Shown here piece after piece: positions 1 to 11,567 of a stretch of DNA of 11,567 nucleotides. The notes under the pieces were generated by a model, which was not told where the DNA came from, did not search any database, and was given only the letters and a program-made list of their open reading frames with translations. Source of the DNA: Octopus sinensis (Eukaryota). The position numbers were made by a program, and so were the translations under genes. Every line of letters starts with the position of its first letter. Positions within the stretch are counted from its first letter, which is position 1. The stretch lies in contig NW_021826956.1 of NCBI RefSeq assembly GCF_006345805.1, positions 1-11,567 of the forward strand, written 5' to 3'.

Positions 1-169
1 TGATAAGATAATCACGTTTCCCGCCGTTTCACGGCGTTAAGTATTTCAAAGAATTCATCTGGGTGAGCTGGTCTTTCGCACGCCGACCCCCATTCGATCC
101 CTTGGTTATTATCGATCCTCTGTAATTGCTCACCGACCACTAGGAGCTCCCTCGTACCCTCTTTGCTGA

Positions 170-282
170 GCCCTGGGTAAAGGTGTTGCACTCACTATCT
201 AGCGATTGCTGTTTCGATTTCTGGACCGGGTGGTGCGTTGTGTTCTTGAGCAACACACTTCATCTCACGTTGCTTTGCGACC
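170..282 (+). mobile_element. Degenerate, 3'-truncated tRNA-derived SINE
   Basis: B-box-like GTTTCGATTTCTGGACC followed by GGGTGGTGCGTTGTGTTCTTGAGCAACACAC, resembling the head of the SINE at 5541 (GTTTCGATTCCCAGACCGGGCGTTGTGAGTGTTTATTGAGCGAAAACAC). Boundaries approximate. Confidence 0.6.
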
Positions 283-307
283 ACACCGTGAGGGAGAGAG
301 AGAGACA

Positions 308-320
308 TTATATATATACA

Positions 321-359
<39 letters not shown>
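308..359. repeat. (TA)n microsatellite
   Basis: Direct reading; abuts the hammerhead element. Confidence 0.95.
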
Positions 360-360
<1 letters not shown>

Positions 361-361
361 T

Positions 362-844
362 ACATTCGACTCACTAGAAAGAGCAGCCAAAACTCATACC
401 GCTAAATAGTTGTAATTCTGAAATAGAAAGAGAAATAAAAACGTTTACCCCCTTCATCTCTGGACTATGCATAGTTTCGGCAAAACTTTGACAAATGAAT
501 TAATTAAATTAAATTAAATTCATTTACATCTGGCGTGCCTCGTCAGCAGAGAGCCTAGGACGAGTATATGTCCACGAGGCTATGGTAAAGAAGCCTCCAG
601 TCACATATGCACTAAATTTTCAAATCTTACCGCAATCGCGCAGTCTACTCAGCAGCAAATATAAACTGCTGATTTAATTTCAAAATTAGCCTAAAAATCA
701 TTAATTAATAAATATAAGGGTAGCCAAAAATTCTTGTTGAATGTATATTATATAGTCTTTGACTATTTTTTCTTTCTCACTAGACCGCTGGTAGCGGAAA
801 ATTTTTTCTAGAATTTTTTGCTACCCTTATATTTATTAATTAAT
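362..844 (-). mobile_element. Hammerhead-bearing non-coding element (retrozyme/Penelope pLTR-like), version A, with an inverted terminal segment
   Basis: Colinear similarity to 9353-9832 (AGAAAGAGCAGCCA, TTTACCC, CACGAGGC, GCAGCAAAT, AGGGTAGC, TAGTCTTTGACTA). Contains a hammerhead on the - strand. 35-bp inverted repeat 700-734/810-844. Both flanks are (TA)n. Confidence 0.8.
457..552 (-). ncRNA. Type I hammerhead ribozyme
   Basis: Minus strand: stem I UCUCUG - core CUGACGA (546-540) - stem II GGCA...UGCC (~61 nt) - GAA - palindromic stem III ACUAUGCAUAGU - C - stem I' CAGAGA. GUC triplet; predicted cleavage between 463 and 462. Confidence 0.9.
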
Positions 845-1229
845 ATATATATATATACATACAATCAAGGTCCCACCAGACGGCCACTTTAATATATTTG
901 ACTTTTTGAATAGTGGAAACATAAATGTTGTCTTCTGTGGTCGAAATATTTTGAGAAAGAATTGGTTTTTGGCACATTTAAATAATTTCAGGGAAAGCTA
1001 CAACTATGTTTTGTTAATAATTTAGAAAGAATTCATATAATTATGGTCCTAAAAACATATGCCGGCATCTTCATCACAAAAGTCAGAATGAGGGGCAGAA
1101 CGTTCTGAGTTTCGGCGATACATCTCATTGCTTTTGTTTTATTGATTTATCTTTTATCGAATACTTTCCTTTATTTTATTCATTCCTCCTATATTTTATT
1201 TTTCTTCTCTTTGGAGCAAGACGTGTATG

Positions 1230-1700
1230 AAGTTAGGAAATGCTTCTGGGTGTTTCTCCAACCAGAAATCAATTGCCTCAATACCATATTCATATGGAAT
1301 GTTGGTATAGAGGTTGGTATAGAGTAAGGCGGCGAGCTGGCAGAAACGTTAGCACGCCGGGCGAAATGCTTAGCGGTATTTCGTCTGCGTTACGTTGTGA
1401 GTTCAAATTCCGCCGAGGTCGACTTTGCCTTTCATCCTTTCGGGGTCGATAAATTAAGTACCAGTTACGAACTGGGGTCGATGTAATCGACTTATTACCT
1501 ATGTCTGTCCTTGCTTGTCCCCTCTGTGTTTAGCCCCTTGTGGGTAATAAAGAAATAGGTATAGAGGTTGATAACATCAAAGGAAACCAAGAATGCCTCC
1601 CCGTTGGTTGTTTTCGGGAGGTGCTTGAGCATACCGAGATCATCTCTAATGAAACTTTTCATGTGACTGAGGAAAGGATTCAAAAGGATGTCCAGGGGCA
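1230..1700 (-). pseudogene. Penelope-like retroelement reverse transcriptase fragment, interrupted by a SINE
   Basis: Removing the insertion and one TSD copy restores one frame: LDILLNPFLSHMKSFIRDDLGMLKHLPKTTNGEAFLVSFDVINLYT|NIPYEYGIEAIDFWLEKHPE. SFDVxxLYTNIP is the PLE/telomerase-type RT motif A region. Confidence 0.85.
1326..1557 (+). mobile_element. tRNA-derived SINE with Meta-like central domain
   Basis: A-box-like TGGCAGAAACGTTAG, B-box GAGTTCAAATTCC, domain GACTTTGCCTTTCATCCTTTCGGGGTCGATAAATTAAGTACC, A-rich tail. 13-bp TSD GGTATAGAGGTTG at 1304-1316 and 1558-1570. Confidence 0.9.
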
Positions 1701-1845
1701 AAACGTGGATAAATCACCATGGAATAGGATGACACGTTTATTTAATGTTAAAATAGAAGAAGGAAACACAAGACTCTTCAGTACATAGCTCATCTTTTCC
1801 TTAACATGATTAAAGTTCACATAAACTTTACTAAATTTCCTTTAA

Positions 1846-2400
1846 CCCCTTACCCAACAATTACTTTGAAAATAAATGTATTTTTTCAGACATATTTTTT
1901 AATTGTTTTGGGGTATATTTCAAACCTTATTTATTATGAATTTTAATTCAATAATATTGATTTAAATTACCGCTTGGGCAGAAACGAGTTACCCGGTTTT
2001 TCATAAATCATATTACTTTTAACAAAAATCATGTTATTTTATTTGGTTATCGACATGGTGGGGTTATAATATAAAGATATAAAAAAAAACAACGTAAAAA
2101 CAAAGTGAATACTTCTATTCATAAAATGTGCCTTCCAACCCTTCGACTGTCTCCAGGTGACTAAATCATACTCGGTCTTCAATGCCTTACTCAAGCGAAA
2201 GGTGGCAGAAATCGTCACTGCCAGACGTATAAAGTGAGCGAATATACTCGTATATGTCAAAAAAGAGTTTACAATAGACAAAGGAACTCGTTTGCTGTCG
2301 ATTTTGGCGAGTCTATCTTTTGACGAGCTAACTCGCCAGAGATAGAAAAAAAAAACGATTTCGGTCAAAACGCATATATTCGTTTCTGCCGGGTAAGGGG
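1846..2400. mobile_element. piggyBac-like non-autonomous element (MITE)
   Basis: TTAA at 1842-1845 and 2401-2404. TIR CCCCTTACCC / GGGTAAGGGG. Internal inverted repeat GGCAGAAACGA (1977-1987) / TCGTTTCTGCC (2380-2390). No transposase recognised. Confidence 0.75.
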
Positions 2401-2751
2401 TTAAAAAAACTACTGTAAAACATTAACTTTTGCTACGAATATTTTGGTTCATGAAGAGCGATTTCTGTCTATATTTAAAGTATTCGCATTTTCTGGCCAT
2501 TCACATTTAATGACGCATTGAAATAAAGGTTTGCACGGTTCCAAGATTCCTCTTCAGAATTAACCGGATATGTCTTTACTAAAGATATTCACAAATAATG
2601 ATTATTAAGTTATTTGGATTTAAGAGGAGACGGGGAAATTTGTGTTAATGTACTTTATTTTCCCGTTACATTTATTATAAAGACAATAAGTTCCGGTGGT
2701 TGAATCTAGAGCTGTTCGCCTTGTGTGTGCAGGCGAGCATGCGTCGTGTTG

Positions 2752-2989
2752 TATGTATATATACATACATACATACATATATATATATACATACATGCAT
2801 ATATATACATACATATATGTATATACATACATACATATATATATACATGCATACATATATATATACACATACATACATATATATATACACATACATACAT
2901 ATATATATACACATACATACATATATATATACACATACATCATATATATACATACATACATATATACATACATACATATATATACATAC

Positions 2990-3045
<56 letters not shown>

Positions 3046-3235
3046 ATATAAGTATACATCAACGTACATCATACACAGGACACACTTCCGCTAATACACT
3101 CAGACATATATACATACTTACAAATGTATCAAATGTATGTATGTATATATGTATATATGTATATAGATATATATACATACATGCATACATATATATATGC
3201 ATGTATGTATATATATATATATACATATATATGTA
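2752..3235. repeat. Compound (TA)n/(TACA)n microsatellite region
   Basis: Direct reading; explains the Y/I/H/T- and M/Y/V/C-rich ORFs. Confidence 0.95.
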
Positions 3236-3397
3236 GACGAGCAACGCCTTTATATTGTTATATCGTTTACACAGTAGACACGCAGCAAAATTATATTTAC
3301 GTATTTGTAACTCATACATCAATATATGGATTACGTCATAGGACTAAAACCGTCGTCCCCATCGTCATTATGTATGCTTATAAGTTTATGGATGAAT

Positions 3398-3638
3398 ATG
3401 TATATATTATATATATATATATACACACACACAAATATATACATAGATAGATTATATAATAGATTGAATATATATATATAATATATATATATACAATAGA
3501 TGCATATAGATATATAGAATAGATTGATATATATAATATAATATATATATATATTATATATATATATATATAATATACAAATAGATAGATAGCTTATAGA
3601 TAGATTTTAAATATATATATATGTACAAATAGATTGAT

Positions 3639-3730
<92 letters not shown>
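3398..3730. repeat. Degenerate (TA)n/(GATA)n ending in a pure (GATA)n array (3639-3730)
   Basis: Direct reading. Confidence 0.95.
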
Positions 3731-3732
<2 letters not shown>

Positions 3733-4215
3733 GCGTATATTTATCCGCACATATGCCTAACTAAAAGTAATTCAGTAATATAGAAGTATAAATTTGCAAG
3801 GACACATCATAACTATATTACAAATGTAAAAAAAAAAGAAAAGAAAAGAATTACCTGGATGCAGACTGGTGTTAAATAAGGTGTAGGAAATAGAACAGTG
3901 CTAAATGCACAATCATTAACGGACATCCGAGTGTAATAAACGCTTCTTTTATATTAAATGTATATGGATATAATTTCTTCATCAAAGACAAAATTCTTTC
4001 ATGTTAGACTTAGTTAAAGGTAATGCACAAATAAAAGAGCATGGAATGATATTTGGTTGATGATAAATGTTATATAAATCAGTCAGCGCTGGTAATAGCA
4101 GAAAATTATTCCATATTCAGGGAATATTGTATTTAGATGTGTTTGAACATATGTAAAATATACGGAAATTATTCGGAGAAAATACGTAGGAATAACTGTA
4201 GTATCATGTATAATA

Positions 4216-4336
4216 TAGATAGATAGATAGATAGATATCAGGCAGACAGAAAGAAAGATAGATAGATATACAGATAGATAGACTGACGGACAGACAGACA
4301 TATAGATAGATAGACAGATATATATATATATATATA
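4216..4336. repeat. Degenerate (GATA/GACA)n plus (TA)n
   Basis: Direct reading. Confidence 0.9.
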
Positions 4337-4530
4337 AAGTTAATCCAAACAAGAAAACACAAAAAAACACAACAACGTGAGGACATGGAACAAATATAGT
4401 ATTATTGGACGCTCAGGAAAGAAGGGAAGAAGGAGGATATAACGTTTCGAGCGGAGCTCTTCGTCGGAAGCACAGGAGAAGGAAAGATCCCAAGAAGGGA
4501 AGACAGAGGAAAAAAATCGCCAACGTATCA
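4337..4530 (-). mobile_element. Short non-coding repeat with minimal hammerhead-like core (family B, copy 1)
   Basis: Minus strand CCGACGA-A-GAGC-UCC-GCUC-GAAACGUU (4467-4441). Downstream blocks TTCCTGAGCGT, TAATAC, TTTGTT, CATGTC are shared with 11320-11503. Ends in (TA)n. Confidence 0.55.
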
Positions 4531-4533
4531 ATG

Positions 4534-4678
4534 TATCTCTCTCTGTCTTTCTCTTACTCCCTCTCTTTTCTTCTCACTCGCGTTCTCTCTCTCTCTCTTT
4601 CTCCCTCTATCTATCTATCTATCTATCTATTTATCTGCCTATCCGTCTGTCTACCAGACTGCTCGTCTGCCTATCTAT
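4534..4678. repeat. (CT)n/(TATC)n low-complexity tract
   Basis: Direct reading. Confidence 0.85.
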
Positions 4679-5008
4679 TCAACAAACACATATACCAATG
4701 TATAGTAGCGGACAAAAAAAAAAGAGAACAATAAATATTTATTTTTAAATGTCGGAAAAGCTAGTGAACGTACAAATTTGTAATTTCTTTAGTAAAATCG
4801 GTTCATCATTAACTAAATTTTCTGAAAAATTTACGTTTGTACAATAGTCTTAATAAAAGTTAATAATTCTAACACTAGTTTCGTCCAAATGTCTCATGTG
4901 CAAAATAAGAACGATTAGATTCCTTTAGAGATTTCTGGAAATTTCGAATATTGTTTACAACTGAGACTCAACGCTACTACCGTCTCAGTATCGTGCTAGC
5001 TTCCGAAC

Positions 5009-5526
5009 ATGACACACCACGCTAAAGTTTCCTCCCGACCTCCGAAAAGAAATTGTGAGGATGAAAGTTTCAGGAATTACTCCCTTGGCTATTTCACGAG
5101 ATGTAAGGAGATCTGGGAGTGTAGTTTCACGTGTTCTTAAGCCCTATGAAGAAACTAAAGGTTTTGAACCGAAAGAGGTAACTGGTAGACAACGCAAAAC
5201 TACCATGCGAGATGATCGAGCCTCGAAAGGTACTATTAAATGATTCTTTCGAGATTGCGAAAGCGTGTCACTGGATTCTTTAGTGAACAAAATATCCAAG
5301 CAATGAAGTGGTCAGCACAAAGTTCAGAAATGAATCCAATTGAAAACCTTTGGAAGATATTTGGAGACAAAGTAACACAAAGGGCACCAACTACGACGAC
5401 GAATTTATGGAGATATTAGAAGAGAAATGGAAGAAAGTAACACCTGACTTGTGCAGGAAACTTATGTCCTGTGGCAATCGATGTGCAGATGTGATCTCCA
5501 ACAAAGTTCTACAAATATTATACTAA
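5009..5526 (+). pseudogene. Tc1-family transposase pseudogene
   Basis: N-terminal HTH region with GRQRKTTMRDDR (GRPRKT motif), joined after ~5245 to WSAQSSEMNPIENLW (5309-5353; WPxQSPDLNPIENLW motif) and a LEEKWKKVTPDLCRKL..RCADVI tail. Frameshifted; middle of the DDE domain missing. Confidence 0.9.
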
Positions 5527-5540
5527 CTGTATTTTCAATT

Positions 5541-5927
5541 GTGGAGGCGCAATGGCCCAGTGGTTAGGGCAGCGGACTCGCGGTCGTAGGATCGCAGTTT
5601 CGATTCCCAGACCGGGCGTTGTGAGTGTTTATTGAGCGAAAACACCTAAAGCTCCAAGAGGCTCCGGCAGGGGATGCTGGTGATCCCTGCTGTACTCTTT
5701 CACCACAACCTTCTCTCACTCTTACTTCCTGTTTCTGTTGTACCTGTATTTCAAAGGGCCGGCCTTGTCACTCTCTGTGTCACGCTGAATATCCCCGAGA
5801 ACTACGTTAAGGGTACACGTGTCTGTGGAGTGCTCAGCCACTTACACGTTAATTTCACGAGCAAGCTGTTCCGTTGATTCGGATCAACCGGAACCCTCGT
5901 CGTCGTAACCGACGGAGTGCTTCCCAC
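5541..5927 (+). mobile_element. Full-length tRNA-derived SINE nested in the Tc1 element
   Basis: A-box TGGCCCAGTGG, B-box GTTTCGATTCCC. 10-bp TSD ATTTTCAATT at 5531-5540 and 5928-5937. Confidence 0.92.
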
Positions 5928-6490
5928 ATTTTCAATTATTATTATGGTTTGGAGTTAATTGAAGCATTTTTTTGGTACGATCGTTCTCTTATTTTGCACA
6001 AGAGACATTTGGACGAAAATAGTGTTAGTGTTATTAACTTTTATTAAGACCATTTGCAAAATCAGATTTTTTACAGAATTTAGCTAATGGTTAACCGTAT
6101 TTAGAAAACCAATTACAAATTTGTACGTTTACTAGCTTTTCCGCAATTTAAAAAAGATATTAATCGTTCGCTTTTTTTTTTTTTGCTCGATACCGTATGT
6201 GGCCATATTTTTTACTAACAGCTTTACTCAGCTCCATGTGTACGTGAATATGTGTTCATTCATCTAAGTATGTATGTATGTGTGTATGTGTGTGTTTGCG
6301 TATACTTAAGCTGAAACTATATAAAACCGCAAATGATAAGTAAAGGGGCAGAACAACAAGCGCGCATAAACCAATTTATAACGGAACATACATGTCTGTG
6401 ATAATCAAGAAATTATATCCAAACCATAATTTTGGTCGTTCGTATAACTGAAATAAACATGTGATATCAAAAAATAAATAAATAAATAAA

Positions 6491-7710
6491 GGCGCAGGAG
6501 TGGCTGTGTGGTAAGTAGCTTGCTAACCAACCACATGGTTCCGGGTTCAGTCCCACTGCGAGGCATCTTGGGCAAGTGTCTTCTGCTATGGCCCCGGGCC
6601 GACCAATGCCTTGTGAGTGGATTTGGTAGACGGAAACTGAAAGAAGCCTGTCGTATATATGTATATATATATATATGTGTGTATGTGTTTGGTGTCTGTG
6701 TTGTCCCCCTAGCATTGCTTGACAACCGATGCTGGTGTGTTTATGCCCACGTTACTTAGCGGTTCGACAAAAGTGACCGATAGAATAAGTACTGGGCTTA
6801 GAAAAGAATAAGTCCCGGGGTCGATTTGCTCGATTAAAGGCGGTGCTCCAGCATGGCCGCAGTCAAATGACTGAAACAATTAAAAGAGTACGTAGGCGCA
6901 GGAGTGGCTGTGTGGTAAGTAGCTTGCTAACCAATCACATTGTTCCGGGTTCAGTCCCACTGCGTGGCACCTTGGGCAAGTGTATTCTGCTATAGCCCCG
7001 GGCCGACCAATGCCTTGTGAGTGGATTTGGTAGACGGAAACTGAAAGAAGCCTGTCGTATATATGTATATATATATATATGTGTGTATGTGTTTGTGTGT
7101 CTGTGTTTGTCCCCCTAGCATTGCTTGACAACCGATGCTGGTGTGTTTATGCCCACGTTACTTAGCGGTTCGACAAAAGTGACCGATAGAGTAAGTACTG
7201 GGCTTAGAAAAGAATAAGTCCCGGGGTCGATTTGCTCGATTAAAGGCGGTGCTCCAGCATGGCCGCAGTCAAATGACTGAAACAATTAAAAGAGTACGTA
7301 GGCGCAGGAGTGGCTGTGTGGTAAGTAGCTTGCTACCCAATCACATTGTTCCGGGTTCAGTCCCACTGCGTGGCACCTTGGGCAAGTGTATTCGCTATAG
7401 CCCCGGGCCTACCAATGCCTTGTGAGTGGATTTGGTAGACGGAAACTGAAAGAAGCCTGTCGTATATATGTATATATATTATATGTGTGTGTGTGTTTGT
7501 GTGTCTGTGTTTGTCCCCCTAGCATTGCTTGACAACCGATGCTGGTGTGTTTACGTCCCCGTCACTTAGCGGTTCAGCAAAAAGAGACCGATAGAATAAG
7601 TACTGGGCTTACAAAGAATAAGTCCCGGGGTCGATTTGCTCGACTAAAAAAGGCGGTGCTCCAGCATGGCCGCAGTCAAATGACTGAAAAGAGTAAAGAG
7701 TAAATAGAGT
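6491..7710 (+). mobile_element. Head-to-tail trimer of a ~405-bp tRNA-derived SINE (units start 6491, 6895, 7301)
   Basis: A-box TGGCTGTGTGG, B-box GGTTCAGTCCC, CORE-like CTTGGGCAAGTG, internal (TA)(TG) microsatellite. The 3' GGGGTCGAT block is shared with the SINE at 1326. Flanked by AAATAAATAAATAAATAAA at 6472-6490 and 7711-7729. Confidence 0.92.
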
Positions 7711-7794
7711 AAATAAATAAATAAATAAAGACAAAACGGAGGAGAATTTGGCGTTTCGTGTAATTTCATTCATGAAAGAGTGAAAGAAGAAGAA

Positions 7795-8143
7795 TCACGC
7801 ATGCGCTTGCGGTGGTTTCGCCATGCATGTAAGCGTCAGGTGGGTGAACTGAGCCGTGATGTCCTTCTCCCAACTCCACTTCCCAACTGGCAGAAACGCG
7901 CGGCGGGCAGGCAGCTGAAGACCTGGGTTACGACGATCAAGGAGGACCTCTCCGTGCTCACGGACCACAGGACCACAGGTGGTCGGCCTGCACCGATAGA
8001 ACCGTGACTGGCTCGCTATCTCCAGTGAACTGGCGCAGGACCGTCGTGCGTGGGCTGCCATGGTTCGAGATGCCTCGAGGGTGGTAGAAGAAGCCGACTC
8101 AACCCGCCCAGGGTGAATGTCGCCACAAGTACAAGTACAAGTA
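7795..8143 (+). mobile_element. 5'-truncated LINE 3' end, probably RTE clade
   Basis: RLRWFRHACKR...GRQLKTWVTTIKEDL, then after an 8-nt duplication (GGACCACA x2) DWLAISSELAQDRRAWAAMVRDA..PG* (stop 8114-8116). Very short 3' UTR and (CAAGTA)3 tail at 8126-8143. GC-rich relative to flanks. Confidence 0.8.
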
Positions 8144-8152
8144 CACATGCAC

Positions 8153-8285
8153 TTGTGTAGAAAGAAGCTTGTTTCTCAACCACGTTGTTCCGGTTTCATT
8201 TCCAATGCATGGCACCTTGGGCTAGTGTCTTCTACTATAGCCTCAGTCCAACCCAAGCCTACTGACTGGAATTGGTAGGCGAAAA
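8153..8285 (+). mobile_element. Old truncated relative of the 6491 SINE
   Basis: CAACCACGTTGTTCCGGTTTCA..GGCACCTTGGGCTAGTGTCTTCTACTATAGCC..TGGAATTGGTAGGCG aligns by eye to the SINE 5' half. Confidence 0.8.
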
Positions 8286-8374
8286 ATATATATATATATA
8301 TATATAATATATATATATAATATATATATATATGTATGTATGTATATATGTATATATATGTATATATATGTATA

Positions 8375-8432
<58 letters not shown>

Positions 8433-8452
8433 ATATATGTTATTCTATATAT

Positions 8453-8538
<86 letters not shown>

Positions 8539-8547
8539 TATATATAT
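8286..8547. repeat. Long imperfect (TA)n microsatellite
   Basis: Direct reading. Confidence 0.95.
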
Positions 8548-8848
8548 GTGGGGGGGTTATCAATTTGTGAAAATGATGGCAATAAAACAATAACGGTGGT
8601 GACAACGATGGGTGTCAAGAATAACTACCACGATGGTAACACTGGTGAACACATAAACACAGTGAGATACAGGAACTGTACAAAGTTTCGGGTCCTTGGA
8701 CAGTAGCAGCCCAATGGATGAGAGGATGGGGCTGAGTGGACTGACATAATGTTGCTAAGAACAATGACACACACACAAGAATACACACACAGACATACAT
8801 TCTCATACACACACACACACACGATCACGGACGCAAATAAGGATACAT

Positions 8849-9135
8849 ATCCATTATGACAATTGCAGCCTTTATCTGCTTCTTTAATTATAATTGTGCT
8901 ATTATTTTCTAGAGTTGAAGTGTAGACTTGTCTGATTTGTTAATATTTGGTGTAACATTAGTGTTGCGTCTAAGAGGAAATTTAGACAGGATATCAATGT
9001 ATCGGTCGATATAGATGTTTCTTCCATTTGGTGGGTGAATTTTGATTTATTCCTTACTACGGATTCACCAATCTCTCTATTTTTATCGGCAAAGAATTCG
9101 ACAAGTCGTAACTTCCGACGGAATTTTTTGAAAGA
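8849..9135 (-). pseudogene. Penelope-like retroelement ORF fragment (N-terminal region to the DKG motif)
   Basis: Frameshifted minus-strand reading FRRKLRLVEFFADK..ESVVRNKSKFT / PNGRNIYIDRYID..PNINK / LENNSTIIIKEADKG / AIVIMD. IxxADKGxxxVIMD is the conserved PLE DKG motif upstream of the RT core (DKG at 8876-8868). Confidence 0.85.
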
Positions 9136-9243
9136 TATACATATATAAATATATAGATGGATAGATAGATAGATGTGTGTGTGTGTGCGCGTGCTTATTT
9201 GTGTGTATATATGCATATATTTATGTACACACTTACATATAAT

Positions 9244-9275
<32 letters not shown>

Positions 9276-9352
9276 GCCAACCACACACACACACACCACA
9301 CACACAACAACACACACACACCACACACCACACACACACATATATATAATAT
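9136..9352. repeat. Compound (TA)/(GATA)/(TG)/(CA) microsatellites
   Basis: Direct reading. Confidence 0.9.
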
Positions 9353-9571
9353 ATTAATCAATTTAGGGTAGCAAAAATTCAGTAAAAATTTATCGCTACC
9401 ACGGCCTAATGGAAAAGAGAAAATAGTCAAAGACTAAATATGTATAAATATAACAATTTAGGAATGGCCTAAACAGGCCATTCGTCCACCAGAAAGAGCA
9501 GCCATAACTCCAACCGCCAAGTAGTGTAATTCGGAAATAAGGTGAAATTTAAAAACATTTACCCTAATTCA

Positions 9572-9669
9572 TCTTTATACGATGCATCGTTTCAGTGTCT
9601 TTAATGATAGACCAGCTTAATTAAATTAAATTAGCTAGTCTACCATAGGTCACACTTCATCAGTAAAGA
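9572..9669 (-). ncRNA. Type I hammerhead ribozyme
   Basis: Minus strand: UCUUUA - CUGAUGA - AGUGU...ACACU - GAA - ACGAUGCAUCGU - A - UAAAGA. GUA triplet; predicted cleavage between 9578 and 9577. Confidence 0.9.
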
Positions 9670-10030
9670 AACCTGGGAGAGACGGATATACACGAGGCGA
9701 CTGTATCAATGCCTCGGGAATATCTGTCTTAAAATTTCAAACCAACGCATTCTCGCCAAACTTATCGGCAGCAAATAAAAACTGCCGATTCAATCTCAGA
9801 ATTAGTCAGAAATTATCAATTAATCAATTTAGCGATAATTTTTACTGAATTTTTTGCTACCCTAAATTTGATAATTGATAATTTTTGCTAATTCTTAAAT
9901 TCTGAGATTGAATCGGCAGTTATATTTGCTGCCGATAAGTTTGGCGCGAATGCGTTGTCTTGAAAATTTTAAGACAGATATTCCCGAGGCTTGATACAGT
10001 CGCCTCGTGTATATCCGTCTCTCCCAGTTT

Positions 10031-10131
10031 TCTTTTACTGATGAAGTGTGACCTATGGTAGACTAGCTTAATTTAATTTAATTAAGCTGGTCTATCATTA
10101 AAGACACTGAAACGATGCATCGTATAAAAGA
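10031..10131 (+). ncRNA. Type I hammerhead ribozyme
   Basis: Stem I UCUUUUA (10031-10037)/UAAAAGA (10125-10131). Core CUGAUGA 10038-10044. Stem II 10045-10108. GAAA 10109-10112. Palindromic stem III 10112-10123. GUA triplet; cleavage predicted after 10124. Confidence 0.92.
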
Positions 10132-10250
10132 TGAATTAGGGTAAATGTTTTTAAATTTTCACCTTATTTCCGAATTACACTACTTGGCGGTTGGAGTTAT
10201 GGCTGCTCTTTCTGGTGGACGAATGCCTGTTTAGGCCATTCCTAATTGTT

Positions 10251-10318
10251 ATATATATATATATATATAATATATATATATAATATATATATAATATAAT
10301 ATATATAAATATATAAAC
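10251..10318. repeat. (TA)n microsatellite
   Basis: Direct reading. Confidence 0.95.
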
Positions 10319-10819
10319 ACATACATACGTGTGTGGCGTATATATATGTGTGTAACTGTGAATTATATACATGCCTATTTCCATATACATATATTATATT
10401 CCAAAACGGTATCGTGAAAGAACACCAAAGAAAGGAAATACCAATTTTATATACTATTTTTCGACGGTAGAAGGGAAAAAGAAAAAAGTCATAGATATAT
10501 TCTTTTTATCTAACTTTTTGTCCATCATCAAAGAAAATAAGTAATGAAGAAAATAATTATGGCAAGGAATGGCATTATACTGTGTCAATATATTTTGTCC
10601 TACTTCCTGGAGGAATTCTGGACAGGTCACCGACACATTTTGACTTCGTCTTCCTCTGAGTTAATATAATATACCGCTTGGCACGTAAATGAATATTGGA
10701 AGTACTTTGATGTATTGATTAAGTCAACGTAGTTTAACTTGAGAAAGAATTAATATCCATGTAAGAGTGTAAGCGTATACACACATAAACGTATAACCAT
10801 GCGTATAGACAGACAGACG

Positions 10820-10922
<103 letters not shown>

Positions 10923-11130
10923 GGATAGATCGGAAAGCAGATAGGTAGGTATGTATATATCTTGGGACACTCCTGCAGTTGTGGATTACCGATAATCAGT
11001 GGACTTCCCAACATCGATGCCTCCTTCATAAACTAGAATATTTACCTGTTGATTTGTGTTTTATCGTATAACCATTAATATGATCCGCTTAACTTTGATA
11101 TTCTCCAATCTTAATTGATGATATTTAATG

Positions 11131-11241
11131 TACATACATATATACATACATACATACATACATACATACATACATACATACATACATACATACATACATA
11201 CATACATACATAAATACATACATACATACATAAATACATAC
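11131..11241. repeat. (TACA)n microsatellite
   Basis: Direct reading. Confidence 0.97.
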
Positions 11242-11319
11242 CCGGTTGCTGAAGTCGAAATTCCAATGAAGGAGCCTTGGATCTAGGTTAGAAATGCGTG
11301 TGTTTGTGTGTGTTCGGCA

Positions 11320-11503
11320 TGATAGATCGCTAGCCACTACACATTGTTTATTTACTCTCCTTGTTTCTTTCTGTGTTCATTTCTGTAGAAGAGCGTAGGC
11401 TCGAAACGTTAAAACTTTTTCACTTCCCGAGCGTTATACTAATACATCTGTTTGTTATCTACACCACATGTCTTCGTCTTTTGTTTTCGTGTGAATTCTC
11501 CCT
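11320..11503 (+). mobile_element. Short non-coding repeat with minimal hammerhead-like core (family B, copy 2)
   Basis: CUGUAGA-A-GAGC-GUAG-GCUC-GAAACGUU (11383-11410), then TTCCCGAGCGT, TAATAC, TTTGTT, CATGTC as in 4337-4530. Ends in (TA)n. 5' boundary uncertain. Confidence 0.5.
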
Positions 11504-11536
11504 ATATATGAATATAAATATATATATATATATATA

Positions 11537-11567
<31 letters not shown>
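11503..11567. repeat. (TA)n microsatellite running off the window
   Basis: Direct reading. Confidence 0.95.

Follow-up and report, generated by a model that had tools for sequence, protein, structure and literature searches.

The association of hammerhead ribozymes with Penelope-like elements is already well known, while the role that the ribozyme plays in these elements is an open question (PMC11167929, 10.1101/2021.04.23.441226). For a Penelope-like element of a lizard, mutants of the hammerhead are reported to insert normally in vitro, no reads began or ended at the cut site, and hammerhead activity needed the protein, which itself cuts AT-rich DNA on both strands and extends both (PMC11167929). 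Reverse transcription of that element is described as starting at an internal stem-loop 111-118 nt into the ORF, with the hammerhead cut at 26, which places the start about 85-92 nt past the cut; a second start defines the 'tail' (PMC11167929). Naiad elements are described as amplifying without a hammerhead, and inverted truncated copies, tails and a bias toward microsatellites as general traits of Penelope-like elements (10.1101/2021.04.23.441226). The copies that autonomous elements leave are mostly truncated and carry a single motif, and for Schistosoma pairs of motifs on opposite strands, 100-700 bp apart, have been reported (PMC4209133). A palindromic stem III and cleavage as a dimer are known for both repeat-type and Penelope hammerheads (PMC4209133, PMC3088659, PMC6765202).

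The other systems that come close to the locus described here are the non-LTR retrozymes. Cleavage and circles in vivo are reported for related repeats of animals (PMC7229834), with unit lengths given as 150-450 bp (PMC7229834) or 51-972 (10.64898/2026.07.22.740005). The latter account relates retrozymes to pLTRs, takes a head-to-tail pair of complete motifs as the defining arrangement of active retrozymes, and reports that, of nine retrozymes predicted in Xenopus, eight showed no cleavage in vitro (10.64898/2026.07.22.740005). That animal retrozymes are mobilised by Penelope-like elements has so far been argued from co-occurrence and sequence kinship (10.64898/2026.07.22.740005, PMC7229834). 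Many covarying hammerhead families per genome have already been described (Cervera and de la Pena), so that a second subfamily keeping its ribozyme is the expected pattern. For octopus, no report of hammerheads was found in the literature searched, although the supplements of papers may include such; a 2026 repeat annotation of Octopus vulgaris, in the portion of its text accessible to us, lists Penelope-like families and leaves hammerhead, ribozyme and retrozyme unmentioned (PMC13282606).

Here we describe a window of 11,567 nucleotides from Octopus sinensis (GCF_006345805.1, contig NW_021826956.1, positions 1 to 11,567), by which we mean the whole stretch of DNA that was analysed. It holds a hammerhead motif in an insertion that we call A, and a diverged version of the same motif in both arms, B and C, of a second insertion (Table 1). 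In our reading, the motif of A belongs to the type I hammerheads and sits in a repeat unit of some 466 nt that has no ORF. This unit is likely a non-autonomous offshoot of a Penelope-like terminal repeat, copied into TA microsatellites by a helper, and we put the probability of this reading at roughly three in four.

Table 1. Coordinates of the hammerhead motifs and of the two insertions that carry them
Feature	Position	Strand	Basis or description
Type I hammerhead, version A, whole motif	457..552	-	sequence, descriptor search, predicted fold, covariation
Stem I 5' arm UCUCUG	547..552	-	6 Watson-Crick pairs with 3' arm CAGAGA 457-462
Catalytic box CUGACGA (C3-A9)	540..546	-	sequence and descriptor search
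Stem II arm, 61 nt	479..539	-	predicted fold -12.0 kcal/mol; base covaries with version B
GAAA box 478-475 and stem III 475-464	464..478	-	descriptor search, predicted fold
GUC triplet 465-463, predicted cut 463/462	462..465	-	sequence and hammerhead consensus
Hammerhead, version B	9572..9669	-	CUGAUGA, A-U-closed 63-nt stem II, GUA site, predicted cut 9578/9577
Hammerhead in arm C	10032..10130	+	same as B save single-base indels; predicted cut 10124/10125
Left arm, insertion A	361..733	-	runs from end of terminal hairpin through upstream part and hammerhead to 102 nt past the cut, without reaching second hairpin
Right arm, insertion A	734..843	+	head-to-head with left arm; unit part after second hairpin
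Hairpin a, GGTAGC...GCTACC	790..825	+	directly precedes one of the conserved 3' ends; predicted -18.2 kcal/mol; B has it too
(TA)n microsatellite, left end of A	310..358		sequence
(TA)n run, right end of A	841..858		sequence
Arm B, second insertion	9353..9832	-	one whole 466-nt unit and 14-nt terminal repeat
Hairpin d	9462..9483	-	about 95-115 nt downstream of cut; marks other 3' end; -14.4 kcal/mol predicted
Arm C	9830..10250	+	head-to-head with B; ends just past hairpin d in TA run

The stretch at 457-552 is a real hammerhead motif, for which cleavage is predicted from the sequence. It has the CUGANGA and GAAA boxes, the NUH site and three helices with helix I open that define type I. The core, the G-C-closed stem II, the palindromic stem III and the perfect 6-bp stem I on the minus strand that a first-pass annotation had listed were all found again by inspection of the sequence and by the descriptor search, and the GUC triplet together with the hammerhead consensus leads to the same cut position that it had predicted. 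Two features go beyond that annotation: stem II is a 61-nt arm and not a short hairpin, and the element around the motif is made of two arms, joined head to head, that together span 361 to about 843. The arm is predicted to consist of a 4-bp base (G-C, G-C, C-G and A-U, the first pair being G539-C479), an internal loop and a long AU-rich hairpin; stem III is a perfect 12-nt palindrome. Descriptor searches of the window at three stringencies returned exactly three matches each time (457-552 minus, 9663 minus and 10038 plus), and none of 1000 dinucleotide shuffles of the window contained a match at either of the two stringencies to which shuffles were submitted. The 96-nt strand of A also folds better than its shuffles (z -2.76; 2/200 as good). 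Rfam gave no hammerhead among 57 matches on the window at E<=1 and none among 2 matches on 430-600 at E<=10, likely because stem II is 61 nt long. In hammerheads, a tertiary contact between loops 1 and 2 has as its partner an A in loop 2; the U that directly follows stem I is shared by A, B and C, and the partner A is not evident in loop 2 of A.

The first-pass annotation had placed this motif at the homologous position of a clearly diverged element, and blastn agrees: it aligns two segments, 363-716 to 9479-9831 (69%) and 734-852 to 9456-9340 (82%). All 14 core-flanking base pairs are kept between A and B/C, six of them by double changes (two in stem I, three in the base of stem II and one in stem III), with none changed on one side and none broken. 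Slid controls were 30-48% paired and had no double changes, and under a simple neutral model the probability of no break together with at least six double changes is 5e-9 to 4e-7. Because B and C are arms of one insertion, this covariation compares only two independent versions. A, B and C agree at each of the 11 invariant core positions and differ in the core only at positions 7 and 17, and a cleavable NUH triplet is present in both versions while 12 of the 28 core-flanking stem positions have changed. The proposal that the ribozyme has been kept by selection is thus upheld by the pairs that were kept and the double changes that kept them. The comparison of core with flanks that the first-pass annotation had suggested is instructive: between A and B the sequence of the ribozyme region changes faster than the flanks, and yet its pairs are kept. 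Substitutions reach 42% in the arm of stem II, compared with 27% in the upstream part, 14% in the downstream part and 15% in the far part. The distal hairpin of stem II is predicted in both versions even as its arms differ largely in sequence. Taken together, the comparison of the two versions supports selection on the fold of the ribozyme, and on the downstream parts more by sequence. An alignment of B with C over 340 columns has 5 substitutions and 8 columns with internal gaps, mostly in homopolymer runs, and these mainly single-base indels suggest long-read errors in the inverted repeat; the extra base on both stem I arms of C may be one such error. A further hairpin upstream of the ribozyme (about 659-682 and 9763-9788, both minus) is predicted in both versions, and the changes at the base of this hairpin are paired.

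As single molecules, the active folds lie above the best predicted fold by 3.7 kcal/mol in A and by 1.0 in B and C, and with flanks the best predicted fold of A and of B is not the hammerhead. When two molecules are folded together, the best predicted structure is a double hammerhead with an intermolecular stem III of 12 bp, at -53.5 kcal/mol for A compared with -44.2 (twice -22.1) for separate molecules, and at -77.1 for B compared with -62.4 (twice -31.2). The best two-molecule fold of C is without stem I.

Read in the sense of the ribozyme, the unit is made up of hairpin a, a short AT-rich part b, a part c with upstream sequence, ribozyme and 100 nt of downstream sequence, the second hairpin d, and a part e. 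These follow each other as b-c-d-e-a-b in B and as a-b-c-d in C, while the left arm of A (733 to 361) is the end of a followed by b and c, and its right arm is e-a-b. An identical 14-mer occurs twice in B, 466 nt apart, which sets the unit at about 466 nt; B thus exceeds one unit length. The parts close into a circle in which every link is present without an ORF, the longest stop-free stretches in the three arms tested being 54, 29 and 64 codons. With no ORF for a reverse transcriptase or a GIY-YIG endonuclease in the unit, it is not an autonomous Penelope-like element. The circular order implies tandem or circular sources, and the window holds no head-to-tail pair of complete motifs (B being one unit and 14 nt). 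Closed as a circle, B is predicted to be highly paired (z -6.6; 0/100 shuffles as good).

Since the motifs of B and C are arms of one insertion, the window contains two insertions, not three. Both are head-to-head pairs of truncated arms and all four of their ends lie in TA runs, for which reason any target duplication would be hidden; the right boundary of A (about 843) is likewise uncertain by a few bases within its TA run. An inverted truncated copy and a microsatellite or AT-rich target, traits of insertions mobilised by Penelope, are therefore both found here. In each pair, one arm ends after b (225 nt past the cut in B) and its partner at or near hairpin d (102 nt past the cut in A, 126 nt in C), and to judge from its parts A looks like a product of twin priming in which d was lost at the inversion. 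The cut site lies inside each of the three arms that bear a motif; the template would accordingly have been a circle or an uncut longer RNA, not a cut linear unit. We also considered the 34-bp inverted repeat 700-733/813-846 as the ends of a MITE, and rejected this: the repeat does not bound the element but is the end of hairpin a on two arms.

Contigs of four public sequencing runs were aligned to 361-1310 at 80% likeness, with 491-530 masked as repeat. Part of 361-846 is present in 20 of 24 runs (9 studies, 4 organisms), none of which holds half of its words. In two runs (X1 and X2) the summed contig depth, which is a rough order of magnitude and not a copy number, is about 28,000-111,000 on 361-456, about 800-4,300 on 521-648 and 0-61 on the flank 873-1128; over the bins of 361-488 and 617-808 it ranges from about 4,000 to 111,000. 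As an order of magnitude, these depths suggest that the family runs to thousands and that A-like central parts make up a few per cent of it. An X2 contig over 449-552, with 4 differences and 1 gap, has a depth of 259, compared with 13 for the contig of the flank 830-1310. The second subfamily that the first-pass annotation had put forward is therefore repeated in its own right, and the run contigs speak for a highly repeated family with A as a multi-copy minority where a single-copy element would have contradicted that view. Among the rows listed there are no differences at 540-546, 475-478 or 463-465, and the copy in the window differs from the majority at 452, 611, 642, 692 and 799, all outside the core. 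A-like contigs contain a joint from 419 to 734 with 40 letters between, as well as opposite-strand joints 724/807 and 732/806; in the contig sequences, these represent the links c-d-e and a-b-c, respectively, in A-like copies. Several joints from the interior of the element to 839-843 look like 5'-truncated copies that end in TA runs. Separate amplification of the 9353-10254 version, which that annotation had also inferred, may have occurred, further copies of it being indicated only by loose contig ends that resemble version B; compared by eye, such ends have B-like letters in X6 at 372 and X2 at 410. Loose ends also include variants of hairpin d with its pairing kept and a third stem II arm (X2 at 479, 2 contigs). 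A contig of run X11 (record 9), which differs at 537 and 539 of the stem II base and has 30 gaps, may be either a decayed copy or one more version, which would be the third. An X11 contig at 423 has about 200 unlike letters starting some 40 nt past the cut, which might be flank or the start of an ORF-bearing helper.

With the non-LTR retrozymes as described (PMC7229834, Cervera and de la Pena 2020; 10.64898/2026.07.22.740005, Li, Clavereau and Pollet 2026), the unit has in common that it codes for no protein, measures a few hundred bases, is low in GC and carries a single type I hammerhead; further shared features are the several sequence families per genome, a strongly self-paired predicted circle and a proposed Penelope-like helper. 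Unlike these, the copies here are head-to-head truncated pairs in TA runs and not head-to-tail arrays, the stem II arm is 61-64 nt long, stem III is a 12-nt palindrome, and both cleavage and circles are predicted. The hammerheads of canonical Penelope-like pseudo-LTRs (PMC4209133, Cervera and de la Pena 2014; PMC11167929, Frangieh et al. 2024; Craig et al. 2021) have in common with ours a type I topology and a palindromic stem III that lends itself to dimers. Also shared are families with many compensatory changes, copies that are inverted and truncated and have an optional tail, AT-rich or microsatellite targets, and a 3' end that lies some 100 nt beyond the cut; the start-site geometry of the lizard element resembles the 102- and 126-nt ends of A and C. 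Unlike the minimal motifs of Penelope pseudo-LTRs, the motif here has a stem I of the canonical 6 bp and lacks an additional base between positions 9 and 10.1; in contrast to canonical Penelope-like elements, there is no ORF, four pairs of stem III are possible within one molecule, and 100 nt beyond the first fixed end comes a second. The type I hammerheads of Schistosoma and newt satellites share the 6-bp helix I, the 4-bp base of helix II and the palindromic helix III (PMC4209133), whereas here loop 2 is replaced by an internal loop and a long hairpin and no Rfam model matches. The new details are thus the long stem II arm and the two conserved, hairpin-marked ends. We found no description of a stem II arm of about 60 nt in such elements in the literature searched, although Lunse et al. 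2017 or supplements may include such variants. The ORF-less circular unit, the head-to-head arms in TA runs and the repeated family together make a non-autonomous, Penelope-derived non-LTR retrozyme the most likely identity. Membership in the retrozyme class is probable on these features, and it is the architecture of the unit that makes its link to Penelope likely.

For transcription, cleavage, dimer and circle formation, the helper and its priming sites, we infer the following route. A transcript longer than one unit would be made and then cut after GUC (463/462) or GUA, mainly as a double hammerhead formed by pairing of the 12-nt palindromes, and the resulting unit-length RNA would likely be ligated to a circle, or the RNA would stay uncut. 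A helper with a reverse transcriptase and a GIY-YIG endonuclease would nick both strands of a TA run, reverse transcription would start at two hairpin-marked sites of the RNA, about 100-125 nt and about 225 nt past the cut, and the two cDNAs would stop at various points before joining head to head. A more specific version is possible rather than probable: a circle made by the ribozyme would be copied by a Penelope-like reverse transcriptase that primes twice, at two hairpins about 100 nt apart, and in the hammerhead, then a distinct variant, loop 2 would have given way to a 60-nt arm kept in shape though not in sequence, possibly a grip by which the helper protein switches cleavage on. If this double priming on a circle is true, each genomic copy records the mechanism, in arms that cross the cut and in a B that exceeds one unit, and the many copies in at least 2-3 versions are a natural dataset linking retrozyme circles to Penelope-type insertion. 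Given that retrozyme-like organisation, Penelope-style scars and strong compensatory change come together in this family, its copies in populations could speak to both the role of the hammerhead and the Penelope-like mobilisation of retrozymes, through retention of the core in young copies and through arms that run past one unit over the cut site.

The first-pass annotation had gone on to suppose that the ribozyme is needed for propagation. This may be so, and published work argues both ways. The fold could have been kept for a role other than cutting, such as protein binding, dimerising or RNA processing, with uncut RNA as the template. We consider this unlikely, though the likeliest of the alternatives. 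In its favour, the cut site is crossed by all three arms that carry a motif, as would be the case with an uncut template no less than with a circle, the monomer hammerhead of A is not the best predicted fold, catalytic mutants insert normally in vitro and activity needs protein (PMC11167929), and Naiads thrive without hammerheads (10.1101/2021.04.23.441226). Against it, the 11 catalytic positions and the NUH triplet were kept in both versions while the stems around them changed, and related animal repeats do cleave and yield circles in vivo (PMC7229834).

It is less probable still that the copies are 5'-truncated inverted ends, that is, solo pseudo-LTRs, of an autonomous Penelope-like element, and that no independent small unit exists. 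The mostly truncated single-motif copies of autonomous elements and the opposite-strand motif pairs 100-700 bp apart in Schistosoma (PMC4209133) would fit this, as would the unlike letters in the X11 contig at 423 if they are from an ORF-bearing form and not merely flank. However, all links of the 466-nt circle are present and none contains an ORF: starting at the ribozyme, B passes both hairpins and returns to its own start, C and the left arm of A run from hairpin a to the ribozyme, and A-like contigs have the same links.

We think it very improbable that a DNA-level repeat, either a Helitron-like rolling-circle passenger or a satellite, carries an old ribozyme by happenstance. Passengers of the Helitron type do have a 3'-terminal hairpin and insert in TA runs, as seen here. 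The distribution of retrozymes is also said to resemble that of Helitron-like elements (10.64898/2026.07.22.740005). Yet for all three helices to show compensatory change, selection must have acted at an RNA stage, and head-to-head arms with two fixed 3' ends fit priming of the Penelope type. As for a chance motif or an assembly artefact, the single-base indels between B and C, most of them in homopolymer runs, are what could be said for it, and it is refuted for 457-552 by the shuffles and by independent short-read contigs that cover the motif (X2 record 18; X1 record 2; X6 records 27-28), leaving it a negligible chance.

Scans of metagenomes with a pattern specific to the family gave 0 matches; a looser pattern gave 20, none with more than 3 pairs in stem I and none with homology beyond the pattern. 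A model built from the three motifs of the window found no further copy in it (only those three and two antisense self-matches) and, against the 20 metagenome loci, nothing better than E 0.06. The loci at that value (L001, L012 and L017, the same metagenome sequence three times) have both boxes and a palindromic stem III with a 2-pair stem I, and were treated as chance.

The window as a whole is low-GC, microsatellite-rich DNA, in which ARAGORN found no tRNA gene. At 1842-2404 a 555-bp element with 10-bp terminal inverted repeats (CCCCTTACCC) lies between two TTAA sites, and we take it to be a non-autonomous element of the piggyBac type. Inverted repeats of about 200 bp with 84% identity at 4714-6181 enclose what is presumably a decayed Tc1/mariner transposase, with an apparently SINE-like insert near 5543-5925. 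A 405-bp SINE-like unit with an internal TA/TG microsatellite is present at 6490-7702 and 8154-8343 in three head-to-tail copies that are 92-96% alike, together with a fourth copy that is partial and more diverged. The SINE-like repeats of the window seem to resemble those of octopus, and a literature search with 25 bases from one of them returned no paper. Between these, the GC-richer stretch 7795-8145, with a short (CAAGTA)n tail at its end, is in our assumption the 3' end of an RTE-type LINE. Further SINE-like fragments lie at 1-300 and 1323-1560.
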